From sequence record PQ390715.1: a stretch of 64,000 nucleotides of DNA; one strand, 5' to 3'. A model generated the notes under the pieces. It saw only the letters and a program-made list of their open reading frames with translations. It was not told where the DNA came from and searched no databases. This stretch comes from Escherichia phage SHEFM2K. Below, piece by piece: positions 59,003 through 61,481 of the stretch (position 1 is the stretch's first letter; every line of letters starts with the position of its first letter). A program made the translations under genes and the position numbers.

Positions 59003-59037
59003 AAAAAAGGGAGAACTGATGTTCTCCCTTTTCGTTT
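59003..59037. terminator. Bidirectional terminator (A-run, GGGAGAAC-tgat-GTTCTCCC, T-run) between the fiber gene and the convergent thymidylate synthase gene
   Basis: Perfect 8-bp stem flanked by AAAAAA and TTTTCGTTT. Confidence 0.75.
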
Positions 59038-59965
59038 ATACAGCCATAGGTGCTTTAATTGTTGGCATTGGGTTGTAATTCACTAATTTAAAAGAATCCA
59101 TAGTGAAATCTTCAATATTAGTAATTGTAGGATCAAGCCACAATTCAGGTAATTCACGAGGTTTTCGCTGTAGTTGTTCTTTTACTTGTTCAACGTGGTT
59201 TTTATAAATGTGACAATCACCACCATTCCAAATAAATTCACCAACATCTAAACCAGTAATTTGTGCAATCATATGAGTTAGTAGTGAGTAACTACTGATA
59301 TTAAATGGAACTCCTAAAAATAGATCAGCGGAGCGTTGATGCAGAATACAGCTTAGTTTTCCTTGCACTACACAAAATTGCACAAAGCTATGACAAGGTG
59401 GTAACGTCATATCATCAAGCTCACCAACGTTCCATGCACTTAGAATGTGGCGACGGCCATATGGATCGGACTTTATACCTTTGATTAGTTCTTGTAATTG
59501 GTCAGTTGTACGTTTCATAACAACACCATGTGAACCAGTATAATCGATAACTTTGTATCCTTTATCTTTTAATTCTTGAATTTCTTCAGTACTGGAACTA
59601 AATTTATAATCTTCCCATTCACGCCATTGCTTACCATACACTGGACCTAACTCACCATCAGTATAACCAAGAGCAACGCCTTGATTTAGGTAATTATCTG
59701 TCCAAATAGTTTTATTTTCTGTATCACGAGTTCCATGCAAAATTTCACAAAGGCGACGCTCATCATGGGAACCTTCAATAAACCATAGTAATTCTGAAGT
59801 CATTGCTTTCCAAGCTAGACGTTTTGTCGTCACTGCTGGGAAACCATCTTTAAGGTCAAAACGCATTTGTTGACCGATAAGTTTGATTGTTCCAACACCA
59901 GTACGGTCAACGCTTTCTACGCCTTCATCTAGAATTTTTTGATATAGTTCTTGTAGTTGTTTCAT
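59036..59965 (-). CDS. thyA: Thymidylate synthase (ThyA/Td family), 309 aa
   Basis: Near-collinear with E. coli ThyA: MKQLQELYQKILDEGVESVDRTGVGT..FG.QMRFDL.DGFP.VTTKR; GPVYGKQWR.W; active-site LPPCHSFVQF; QRSADLFLGVPFNI.SYSLL.HM.AQ; C-terminal IKAPMAV. Confidence 0.9.
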   Translation of the reverse strand: MKQLQELYQKILDEGVESVDRTGVGTIKLIGQQMRFDLKDGFPAVTTKRLAWKAMTSELLWFIEGSHDERRLCEILHGTRDTENKTIWTDNYLNQGVALGYTDGELGPVYGKQWREWEDYKFSSSTEEIQELKDKGYKVIDYTGSHGVVMKRTTDQLQELIKGIKSDPYGRRHILSAWNVGELDDMTLPPCHSFVQFCVVQGKLSCILHQRSADLFLGVPFNISSYSLLTHMIAQITGLDVGEFIWNGGDCHIYKNHVEQVKEQLQRKPRELPELWLDPTITNIEDFTMDSFKLVNYNPMPTIKAPMAV

Positions 59966-60558
59966 TATTCTTCCTTGAAAAATGTAATAAAATGTTCCAT
60001 ATGTTTTTCGGTGGCATTGCGTGAACCAATACCAGTCCAGTTACCATGTGGTGCTGGAACGACGAATGTTTGTGTGAACTCTTTCAGTACTGTATCGAAA
60101 TAAAATACTGAACGTGAATTCATATCATAACAATAAATTTCAGGATTTTCAACTGAATCCATATACATCTGTACTGCCCATGCAGTACCACCACTTACCT
60201 TAGTTGGTGATGTGATATTTGCAATACAATATATTCTTTCTGTATTAAGTATCTGATAACTATTCCTTGCAAGTAAGTTGTAAACATAAGAACCAGGTTT
60301 TGGTACTTTTCGCTGCAACGAGTAACATGCAATGTTTAGTTGATTTAATATAGAAATATCAGATAGAATATTGGATGGTATTTCTAATATAGTACTTTCA
60401 TCTACACTATGCTCATGACCTTTGAATGAAAAATTAATAACTTCAAATCCATTATTTTTTGCATAGATAGAAAAAAGGCGGTCAGCACCTGCTGCCCCGC
60501 CACTAAAACATACATTAGATAAACCTTTAATTGCTTCATCTAATTCATTCTTTTTCAT
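59965..60558 (-). CDS. Rossmann-like protein with GGA.G.D motif (SLOG / DprA-LOG-YpsA-like superfamily candidate), 197 aa
   Basis: N-terminal VCFSGGAAGADRLFS resembles the SLOG-family glycine-rich motif; stop overlaps the thyA start (TAATG). Family assignment is from motif memory only. Confidence 0.35.
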   Translation of the reverse strand: MKKNELDEAIKGLSNVCFSGGAAGADRLFSIYAKNNGFEVINFSFKGHEHSVDESTILEIPSNILSDISILNQLNIACYSLQRKVPKPGSYVYNLLARNSYQILNTERIYCIANITSPTKVSGGTAWAVQMYMDSVENPEIYCYDMNSRSVFYFDTVLKEFTQTFVVPAPHGNWTGIGSRNATEKHMEHFITFFKEE

Positions 60559-60561
60559 ATT

Positions 60562-61218
60562 TTATTTTGCTTTACGTTCTGCAAATAGTTGTTTTACTTT
60601 CTCAATAGCTTTAGTCTGTGAAATACCTTCTGGAATTTCTAGATAAATTGTTTTACTATCTTTCGGTTGTTCAACAACTTGTGTTTGCGGACGCAAGCTT
60701 GGCTCTAAATTGTATGCACGTTCATAATGTTCTTTAGCCAGTTTTTCATATTTTTGTGCATCAGTGAGAAGTTGTTCTACAATAGTAGCTTCTTCTACTT
60801 TAGTGTCCGCTTCTTGTGGATTGAATGGGTTAAAGTCTTTTACTTTACCATCTTCTTGTACTTTCGCTTGATTTTCATCTAATGCTTTGTTTAGAACATC
60901 AAGAGAAATTTTATTATTACCACCAGTGTGCATATCAATGTCACAAGTACGAACGCGACGTAGATGCTGCATGTTGTGTAGAACATCTAGCATTTTGCGT
61001 CCATCGAGATAACCAATTTTATGCATTACTTCCCACAAATCAATATTAGATTGACCATGACCCATAACAATATCAGTTACTGCGTGTACATATGCTTCTG
61101 GTAGTGAATCACGATAAACGATAAGGCAGTGTTCAGGATCATCTGGTAGTGAACGCCAAACAACAAAAACACGAGAACCTGTATTACGCATTACACCAAC
61201 ATGACGAATAGCTGCCAT
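60562..61218 (-). CDS. Hypothetical protein (218 aa)
   Basis: Operon partner between the vWA protein and SLOG-like/thyA genes; no motif recognised. Confidence 0.35.
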   Translation of the reverse strand: MAAIRHVGVMRNTGSRVFVVWRSLPDDPEHCLIVYRDSLPEAYVHAVTDIVMGHGQSNIDLWEVMHKIGYLDGRKMLDVLHNMQHLRRVRTCDIDMHTGGNNKISLDVLNKALDENQAKVQEDGKVKDFNPFNPQEADTKVEEATIVEQLLTDAQKYEKLAKEHYERAYNLEPSLRPQTQVVEQPKDSKTIYLEIPEGISQTKAIEKVKQLFAERKAK

Positions 61219-61220
61219 AA

Positions 61221-61481
61221 TTATTCTCCTTTATCTTCTTGAGTTTCACTATCTTGTGATTCAGCTTCTTCTTTAGCTGCATCTTCTTGTGCTTTAATAT
61301 CTTCAAGAGCTACATTTGCAAAAGAAACAAATTTAGATACAACTGGAGCAACCTCAACAAGTTCTTCAACTTTAAAGGTGTTTCGTGCAACAGCAGCTTC
61401 CATGATTTTTGCAGCATTGATTAGGTCTAGAAGGGTTAGTTGAATTTGATTATTTTCTTGTTCCATTTTAATACTCTCCAT
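61221..61481 (-). CDS. Small acidic hypothetical protein (86 aa)
   Basis: Glu/Asp-rich C-terminus; in operon context. Confidence 0.3.
   Translation of the reverse strand: MESIKMEQENNQIQLTLLDLINAAKIMEAAVARNTFKVEELVEVAPVVSKFVSFANVALEDIKAQEDAAKEEAESQDSETQEDKGE

Follow-up and report, generated by a model that had tools for sequence, protein, structure and literature searches.

A 64,000-nucleotide stretch of the genome of Escherichia phage SHEFM2K (record PQ390715.1), referred to here as the window, carries a group of four minus-strand genes ending in the thymidylate synthase gene. The gene immediately upstream of the latter encodes a 197-residue protein of the SLOG superfamily, which is the main subject of this report. 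The protein belongs to a large uncharacterised phage family whose members appear to share a permuted DprA-type ligand pocket and are most often encoded beside a phage deoxynucleoside monophosphate (dNMP) kinase. By analogy with DprA, we tentatively regard it as an accessory single-stranded DNA (ssDNA)-binding factor that may act in phage DNA replication, recombination or repair. A SLOG or DprA-like assignment is already present in public annotation, in which the identical protein is called "DUF2493 domain-containing protein" by NCBI and its counterpart in phage 121Q "DprA-like DNA recombination-mediator protein"; what is added here is a sharper description of the family. Nothing points to a new DNA-modification pathway, and both the thymidylate synthase (ThyA) and the operon are ordinary.

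The region spanning positions 58900-61600 is 100% identical to the corresponding DNA of Escherichia phages ECO103 4-12-1 and EC22.5-2 and 99.8% identical to that of 121Q, an Asteriusvirus and Rak2-like jumbo myovirus of approximately 350 kb. The source phage is thus an Asteriusvirus, a jumbo E. coli phage of the 121Q/PBECO4 type.

The SLOG domain and its pocket motifs

The initial annotation had placed the 197-residue protein in the SLOG superfamily on account of a GGAAGAD motif near its N-terminus. Both the motif (residues 19-26 read SGGAAGAD) and the assignment proved correct. The protein is a three-layer alpha/beta sandwich whose nearest structural neighbours are members of SLOG, a superfamily of the TIR-DrHyd-SLOG Rossmannoid clade, and Foldseek also returns PDB entry 3imk, a cpYpsA protein (PF12694) described as a "putative molybdenum carrier protein". 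The closest structural similarity is to proteins of the cpYpsA/YAcAr type, and the GxD/E signature of the YpsA clade, of which the G-x-D form is predicted to bind substrate (PMC6459960), is present. At the sequence level, the protein matches phrog_768 ("DprA-like", E=1.3e-26) and, over residues 6-44 only, the Pfam family YAcAr/DUF2493 (PF10686), with 20.2 bits against a cut-off of 28.2. NCBIfam and PADLOC scans returned nothing for this protein or for the 218-residue protein encoded upstream, and a search of PDB sequences with the family profile gave one spurious match only (E 1.3).

Weak YAcAr matches occur in 22 of 53 family members, and the YpsA-clade GxD signature is likewise found in the phage family (PMC6459960). 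In contrast, PF12694 is hit by two fusion relatives only, at 17-19 bits versus a cut-off of 26.2, and the phage family differs from cpYpsA and YAcAr in having extra beta-hairpins and a helical insert at residues 45-90. Placement near cpYpsA/YAcAr says little about mechanism.

Several segments are invariant or nearly so. The segment S19-G-G-A-x-G-A-D26 follows a strand at residues 16-19, and G123-G-T-A-W-A-x-Q130-M-x-x-D134 leads into a helix at residues 125-135; R83, L95-L-x-R98-N99-x-x-Q102, P168-x-P-x-G172 and G176-I-G-S/T-R180 complete the set. Among 83 aligned sequences, L95 is kept in 82, R98 in all and N99 in 81, the stretch L95-L-A-R98-N99 lying within a helix (residues 91-102). G178 is kept in all 83 sequences, S/T179 and R180 in 77 each, at a strand-to-helix loop formed by residues 178-183. 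The SGxAxGxD-like and GGT loops of the family resemble what we take to be the equivalent loops of DprA.

The DprA domain is defined by the motifs G-[STA]-R and [FLY]-x-x-R-[ND]; in the ssDNA complex of H. pylori DprA, one thymine occupies a conserved pocket, where it is held by Arg143, Asn144, Tyr108 and Gly164, and Arg52 forms a lid that also meets the phosphates (PMC3950713). Both pocket motifs are kept in the phage family, as G-S/T-R and L-x-x-R-N, and they lie in the same kinds of element as in DprA, a strand-to-helix loop and a helix, respectively. The order of motifs differs. In the phage family it is SGGAxGAD, LxxRN, GGT and GSR, and G-S/T-R is located at the C-terminus, whereas it is N-terminal in DprA; the native strand order of DprA was not found.

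The effect of this rearrangement was assessed by moving the last ~30 residues, which contain the C-terminal strand and helix, to the front in silico and rescoring the sequences against Pfam DprA. All four relatives tested scored higher after the move: two that had no hit in the native order reached 11.4 and 13.4 bits, and the other two went from 15.8 to 23.9 and from 12.4 to 18.3 bits. The permuted alignments start at profile positions 47-50 and should thus take in the G-S-R strand; in the native order they start at 76-77. Scores remain below the gathering cut-off of DprA/Smf (PF02481; 29.6 bits) throughout: six of the 53 relatives match at E<=0.1, all under the cut-off, and even the best permuted score falls short of it. 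The test is supportive rather than conclusive, and we infer from it that the 197-residue protein is probably a circularly permuted DprA/YpsA-like domain.

A different outcome was obtained for the LOG branch, whose catalytic glutamate belongs to the motif PGGxGTxxE. The corresponding position of the phage protein reads S122-G-G-T-A-W-A-V-Q130, and comparison by eye replaces the glutamate by Gln130 or Ala128, depending on the register. No hit to Pfam Lysine_decarbox (PF03641) was obtained for any of the 53 family members. The family thereby differs from LOG/PpnN, and a LOG-like phosphoribohydrolase reading is rejected on this sequence evidence. Because the LOG glutamate is absent and the DprA pocket motifs are kept, the protein is predicted from sequence to be a ligand binder of the DprA/YpsA branch and not a glycosidase or other LOG-type hydrolase. 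A nucleotide-related role, as initially suggested, is in keeping with the dNMP-handling enzymes encoded next to its relatives; the suggested modifying activity is not, given the missing glutamate and the invariant DprA binding motifs.

Distribution and genomic contexts of the family

Searching 1.84 billion representatives with the family profile retrieved 2,691 clusters at E<=1e-3, and 718 of these reach E<=1e-30; the resulting figure of ~2,700 family clusters is counted at 50% identity. Most members are 175-210 residues long, some carry extensions, and some are contained in proteins of 1,700-4,050 residues. When 185,579 species genomes were scanned with a single narrow peptide pattern, only 13 loci were found, all in Flavobacteriaceae or Bacteroidales. 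With so few bacterial loci, the family looks overwhelmingly viral.

Gene neighbourhoods were compared at 79 IMG/VR loci, 14 from Rak2-like phages and 65 from other sources. All 14 Rak2-like loci have the order ATPase, VWA, small gene, 218-residue gene, SLOG, ThyA, with an open reading frame (ORF) of ~100 residues optionally present before or after the SLOG gene. SLOG and ThyA genes are directly joined in Asteriusvirus and Alcyoneusvirus only; in other Rak2-like genera a small ORF lies between them.

A T4 gp1-type dNMP kinase is encoded nearby in 43 of the 65 remaining loci. The kinase gene is located upstream, on the same strand and within 450 nt, in 36 of these 43, and a start codon lies in or beside the kinase stop in 25 of the 36, the joints being of the ATGA or TAATG type or longer overlaps. 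The tail-sheath gene is found upstream on the opposite strand at some of the non-Rak2-like loci and downstream on the same strand at others. Unbiased clustering of neighbours also returned dNMP kinase as the commonest partner (39/65 loci), followed by structural genes and by a 163-residue family that by eye resembles Pth2 peptidyl-tRNA hydrolase.

Other contexts are rarer. In Caulobacter phage Cr30, the SLOG gene directly follows the recombination nuclease genes gp47/gp46, and at one metagenomic locus gp46/47 homologs are located ~2 kb upstream. Elsewhere, the SLOG gene lies beside a dCMP (deoxycytidylate) deaminase gene, with NAMPT and NMNAT-Nudix genes 1-3 kb away. In a metagenomic contig (L114, 2503-5677), an adenylosuccinate-synthetase-like gene, either PurA or possibly the PurZ of 2-aminoadenine phages, immediately precedes the SLOG gene, a His_Phos_1 phosphatase is encoded two genes downstream, and PRTase_3 is found 3.6 kb away. 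One locus has the order KptA, dNMP kinase, SLOG, sheath.

The domain also occurs within larger proteins. We identified a His_Phos_1-SLOG fusion and a giant protein (P0210) in which SLOG is followed by a NADAR domain; Pfam and PHROG scans of the longer fusion relatives revealed no named domain besides these two. SLOG domains are embedded in the virion RNA polymerase of the N4-like phage Pylas, at approximately residues 980-1144 (L008, 6001-6492), and in a crAss-like protein of 4,328 residues (cr109_1 gp53; L009, 5001-5477). Giant ORFs containing SLOG may also feature an AlkB-like 2-oxoglutarate oxygenase (L084) or a superfamily 1 (SF1)/RecD-like helicase (L088). Two further loci with the domain embedded in giant phage proteins were noted (L090 and L091).

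In bacteria, all 11 Flavobacteriaceae loci (L098-L108, ~4980-9100; Flavobacterium, Myroides and Paenimyroides) have the same organization, with a divergent miaB followed by SLOG, a WYL/WCX regulator and topA. The SLOG-WYL-topA order recalls the classical, widespread dprA-topA synteny. Flanking housekeeping genes are ~90% identical between loci, the SLOG-WYL pair 57-70%.

The same invariant residues are found in every context. This points to a single biochemical activity, which the family most likely uses in each of its different settings.

One SLOG gene departs from the usual form. In Klebsiella phage Muenster (L006, 5001-5592), it is annotated as two coding sequences of 134 and 66 residues, and the tblastn match falls in two pieces; the gene is intact in the related phage K64-1. 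The split may represent either a frameshift, with the gene a possible pseudogene, or a sequencing error.

The transcription unit and thymidylate synthesis

The four ORFs described in the initial annotation were recovered at their positions, all on the minus strand. They are tightly packed and form one transcription unit between a promoter and a strong terminator. The features of the unit and of its upstream neighbours are as follows:

63075-64000, minus strand: MoxR-like AAA ATPase gene, cut by the window end; partner of the 474-residue protein gene
61576-63000, minus strand: DUF2201_N metallopeptidase and VWA protein, 474 residues (Pfam E=2e-35 and 7e-21)
61542-61563, minus strand: intrinsic terminator of the upstream MoxR-ATPase/VWA-metallopeptidase unit; 9-bp stem with 5 GC pairs, then a T run
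61501-61528, minus strand: predicted sigma70-like promoter with extended -10, GGGACA-16 nt-TGATATAAT; 10/12 matches in a consensus scan, plus the TG extension
61221-61466, minus strand: small acidic protein, 81 residues, isoelectric point (pI) 4.2; the mechanical ORF from 61481 has 86 residues
60562-61218, minus strand: 218-residue protein, SH3/KOW-like barrel, linker and helices (ORF)
59965-60558, minus strand: 197-residue single-domain SLOG protein (121Q gp567; ORF)
59036-59965, minus strand: thymidylate synthase ThyA, 309 residues (ORF and profile matches)
59004-59033, minus strand: strong operon-closing terminator; 13-bp stem with 5 GC pairs and a T run

The TAATG junction noted earlier between the SLOG and ThyA genes is read directly from the sequence; it is a 1-nt overlap, with an AAGGA Shine-Dalgarno box just upstream. 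The 218-residue gene is separated from the SLOG gene by 3 nt (TAA-AAT-ATG), and the small gene from the 218-residue gene by 2 nt (TAA-TT-ATG). The closing terminator is shared with a convergent plus-strand structural gene ending at 59001. The -10 of the predicted promoter reads TATAAT with a TG extension. Alignments revealed that TATAAT, a (G/T)G(A/G)ACA -35-like element and the Shine-Dalgarno box are kept in Asteriusvirus, Eneladusvirus (fHe-Yen9-04), Alcyoneusvirus (Muenster) and Salmonella phage PHA46. A hairpin and T-run at the position of the upstream terminator are also aligned in four genera, and a terminator is annotated there in Muenster. Conservation of this layout in four Rak2-like genera argues that it is not a chance arrangement, and positions 61501-61528 probably function as a promoter. 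The operon would thus be driven by a host-type extended -10 promoter and closed by a strong terminator. In phage CBB, a variant promoter class, "TGAAACG", is mostly found upstream of DNA-synthesis genes (PMC5259590). The (G/T)G(A/G)ACA element resembles this class, and by analogy the operon may be expressed in the middle or early class.

The first ATG of the 86-residue ORF sits within the Shine-Dalgarno sequence GGAGAG, whereas the start at 61466 has this box 9 nt upstream, is kept across genera and is the one annotated in 121Q. The cross-genus alignment, the box and the 121Q annotation therefore place the true start at 61466, and the protein, correctly located in the initial annotation, is 81 and not 86 residues long. 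The 81-residue form is present on 71 contigs. It is helical and acidic and belongs to phrog_13789, a family of unknown function. Apart from a spurious 12.8-bit NCBIfam hit to methionine synthase, no Pfam, NCBIfam or PADLOC match was obtained and no relatives with known function were detected, leaving nothing to favour the proposal that it modifies nucleotides.

The same proposal fails for the 218-residue protein. Its model (pLDDT 80 overall, >90 at residues 11-110) features an N-terminal SH3/KOW-like beta-barrel, a disordered acidic linker with an invariant N130-P131 and two long helices, a fold that rules out the enzyme reading. As modelled, the architecture looks adaptor-like. Homologs form 70 clusters, and all those with a named source are from Rak2-like jumbo phages or E. 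coli/Salmonella assemblies. The 218- and 81-residue proteins would thus be non-enzymatic, lineage-specific partners.

The identification of ThyA, called unambiguous at the outset, is secure. The protein scores 340.8 bits against PF00303 (cut-off 24.3) and passes two NCBIfam equivalogs, NF002497 (343.1, cut-off 327) and TIGR03284 (327.2, cut-off 108.35). In the alignment with E. coli ThyA (2tsc; E=2.4e-81), the motifs DRTG, GRR, PPCH, which contains the catalytic Cys, QRS and PFNISSY are in register. The roles of these residues, which include the arginines for the dUMP phosphate, are established enzymology, and the Asn of PFNI (E. coli Asn177) marks specificity for dUMP (deoxyuridylate) rather than dCMP. 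Relative to the E. coli enzyme, the phage protein has a 33-residue insertion at residues 119-151 (DYKFSSSTEEIQELKDKGYKVIDYTGSHGVVMK), and the loop after the TIW motif is also longer; the Enterococcus and L. casei enzymes (315-316 residues) align with it over the full length. By its sequence, ThyA is a canonical dUMP methylase, and nothing suggests a hydroxymethylase. It would convert dUMP and methylene-tetrahydrofolate to dTMP (thymidylate), and the dihydrofolate would be recycled by a distantly encoded phage dihydrofolate reductase (DHFR).

The reported lack of DHFR holds for the window, in which tblastn with E. coli FolA gave no match at E<=0.01, but not for this type of genome, as gp42 of 121Q is a DHFR (same query, E=3e-14). 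The SLOG protein, a Rossmann protein that may be translationally coupled to ThyA, is accordingly ruled out as a substitute DHFR. In 121Q, NrdA/NrdB (gp32/33) and a MazG-like enzyme (gp37) are encoded with DHFR near the other genome end, ~250 kb from the operon. No dNMP kinase was found in the 234 kb of 121Q that were searched, a span that excludes the 150-265 kb stretch. According to the CBB (PMC5259590) and phAPEC6 papers, such phages encode dCMP deaminases, thymidine kinase, dNMP kinase and NAD-salvage genes. Since DHFR and NrdAB are encoded elsewhere, the pathway is an ordinary one, and the unusual pathway initially envisaged, departing from the T4 frd-td-nrd arrangement, gives way to a complete and conventional dTMP pathway with dispersed genes. 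The phage ThyA is homologous to T4 td (PDB 1tis, E=2.7e-74), and Rak2-like phages, like T4, have DHFR, NrdAB, dCMP deaminase, thymidine kinase and dNMP kinase. In contrast to T4, the genes of Rak2-like phages are dispersed, ThyA stands alone among tail and baseplate genes, and its gene has no intron.

A SLOG protein identical to that of the window is encoded by phage phAPEC6, the DNA of which is 99.6% identical over the region. In published phAPEC6 virion mass spectrometry data, ThyA is represented by 3 peptides (10.7% coverage), a 25.02-kDa protein by 1 and the ATPase by 6. The 25.02-kDa protein matches the 218-residue protein. The presence of the three proteins may reflect carry-over or contamination. 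Virion ThyA brings to mind an old and contested proposal that places the td and frd products of T4 in the baseplate. The SLOG protein is not among the phAPEC6 virion proteins in the part of the table that was covered, and a packaged virion effector in this phage is unsupported.

In 121Q, the four products are named thymidylate synthase (gp568), DprA-like protein (gp567, see above) and hypothetical proteins (gp566 and gp565). Its neighbours there are tail-fibre and structural genes, which are carried on the opposite strand, and the VWA/metallopeptidase and MoxR-like ATPase genes, which share the strand of the unit. The 474-residue DUF2201_N/VWA protein is labelled "HNH endonuclease" (phrog_1314) in PHROG-derived annotation, which is probably a misnomer. 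The annotators of Muenster described both the ATPase and the VWA protein as homologous to adjacent genes of phage N4. The remainder of the window contains mainly T4-like structural genes, along with genes for a gp55-like late sigma factor, gp46/47-like nucleases, Nudix and ClpA-like proteins. The tail-fibre protein encoded at 50583-56108 on the plus strand (1,841 residues; 121Q gp571) has, by eye, many repeated Thr/Gly/Ser-rich segments, such as "DLSTTDVxAKSITTTAGAxIGGDL". At ~24600-25400 (121Q gp584, record 314100-314864), baseplate wedge and gp25-like genes are separated by one for an HNH endonuclease, whose annotation reads "associated with group I intron".

Candidate ligands and roles

The reading that we tentatively favour, that of an accessory ssDNA-binding factor, rests on analogy with DprA. 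The protein would be a stand-alone SLOG domain of the DprA/YpsA branch in which the G-S/T-R strand has shifted from the N- to the C-terminus. Its ligand pocket would be built from four elements, namely the SGGAxGAD loop, the L95-x-x-R98-N99 helix, the GGT loop and the C-terminal G178-S-R180 loop. As in H. pylori DprA, one deoxynucleotide base may insert into this pocket, with Arg98 and Asn99 orienting the base and Arg180 serving as a phosphate-contacting lid. Lacking a LOG-type catalytic glutamate, the protein would bind its ligand rather than cleave it, and ssDNA would be the likeliest ligand, as for DprA and ShosA. Membership in the same class of DNA-synthesis genes may explain its co-expression with DNA-precursor enzymes, the adjacency to dNMP kinase and ThyA then reflecting co-regulation. 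The ssDNA reading fits the pocket motifs and the PHROG name, as well as the gp46/47, helicase, AlkB, NADAR, virion RNA polymerase and WYL/topA contexts. A precedent by analogy is provided by ShosA of the ShosTA defence system, a DprA-like ssDNA binder whose genetic partner is an enzyme that upsets nucleotide pools (PMC11961720).

Several observations weigh against ssDNA binding. The protein is acidic (pI 5.75; family median 6.7), whereas the pockets or patches of DprA and ShosA carry positive charge. It is a single domain, without the SAM and C-terminal winged-helix domains of many DprA proteins, and the 197-residue protein of the window itself has no Pfam DprA hit in either native or permuted order. 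Genes for enzymes that handle dNMPs are more frequent neighbours than recombination genes, and the phage already encodes UvsX, UvsY and SSB. Moreover, the giant ejected proteins may be no more than strings of effector domains that are functionally unrelated.

The neighbours would be better explained if the protein bound or processed free dNMPs together with the phage dNMP kinase, ThyA and dCMP deaminase, as a partner or regulatory subunit, a carrier, an N-glycosidase or a base-exchange enzyme; such a protein could serve to remove dNMP-derived precursors of immune signals. This explanation, which we consider somewhat unlikely, best fits the presence of dNMP kinase in two-thirds of the non-Rak2-like loci (43/65), maintained although the tail-sheath gene changes side and strand. 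ThyA (14 Rak2-like loci), dCMP deaminase, the adenylosuccinate-synthetase-like gene and the His_Phos_1 phosphatase, also found fused to SLOG, point the same way, as do the guanylate-kinase-SLOG fusions described by Iyer et al. 2022. The acidic pI is in keeping with it, a mononucleotide ligand is sterically plausible since the DprA crystal pocket holds a single thymine nucleotide, and phage dNMP kinases are known immune triggers that phages counter by depleting dAMP (deoxyadenylate; bioRxiv 10.1101/2024.12.20.629578). However, nearly all invariant residues are shared with the non-catalytic DprA, the LOG glutamate is absent and no other catalytic residue stands out. Much of the kinase adjacency may be synteny inherited within one broad T4-like clade, 4-nt overlaps are common between unrelated phage genes, and most Rak2-like genera have a ~100-residue ORF between SLOG and ThyA. 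Nor does free-dNMP binding account for copies in virion RNA polymerase and giant proteins, after gp46/47 or beside bacterial WYL/topA. A more specific version, in which a dNMP-directed factor coupled to dNMP kinase or ThyA edits the dNMP pool as an N-glycosidase, base-exchange enzyme or sponge, seems to us improbable; aberrant dNMPs such as dIMP (deoxyinosinate) might then be removed before the kinase makes immune signals from them, as in Kongming-type defence. The Kongming sensor itself is not a SLOG protein, KomB being a HAM1-like pyrophosphatase, and the study cited above for dAMP depletion mentions no SLOG or DprA protein.

SLOG domains occur in 31% of jumbo phages, mostly of a YpsA-like clade, and Iyer, Burroughs and Aravind, who predicted action on ADP-ribose derivatives, proposed a counter-defence role for them (PMC9503650). 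Applied to the present family, the proposal would make the protein a sponge for, or degrader of, immune signals derived from NAD+ or ADP-ribose, such as cyclic ADP-ribose isomers. The SLOG-NADAR giant protein agrees with this, as does the occurrence of NAMPT, NMNAT-Nudix, NAD synthetase, KptA and PRTase_3 within 1-4 kb in several loci, and copies carried within ejected virion proteins would enter the cell at an early stage of infection. We nevertheless hold it to be improbable. The most recurrent neighbour is dNMP kinase, not an NAD or ADP-ribose gene, and auxiliary metabolic genes cluster in phage genomes regardless of function; structural similarity to the SLOG domain of ThsA is weak compared with that to DprA, LOG and cpYpsA; there is no PADLOC match; and, unlike ThyA and the ATPase, the protein does not appear in the part of the phAPEC6 virion table that was covered. 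The explanation closest to the initial annotation, in which the operon is a nucleotide-modifying or salvage pathway that makes non-canonical DNA bases in place of the T4 frd-td-nrd logic, has hardly any likelihood. Co-transcription with ThyA and the cleavage of N-glycosidic bonds by LOG-clade SLOG enzymes (PMC9503650) would favour it. On the other hand, ThyA is a canonical dUMP methylase that keeps the Asn177 equivalent and the catalytic Cys and scores above the equivalog cut-offs, the genes for DHFR and NrdAB lie elsewhere, and the 218-residue protein has no enzyme fold. In the CBB paper, no genes for the synthesis of glycosylated hydroxymethylcytosine were found, although methyltransferases acting on adenine and cytosine are listed (PMC5259590), and such phages are routinely sequenced and assembled.

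If the 197-residue protein and its relatives bind ssDNA, they would constitute a minimal phage analogue of DprA. If they bind free dNMPs, they would fill a gap in phage DNA-precursor metabolism or in immune evasion, and a dNMP-directed factor that edits the pool would amount to a branch of phage nucleotide metabolism or counter-defence that is widespread yet has gone unrecognised. With either ligand established, thousands of phage genomes could be annotated better.

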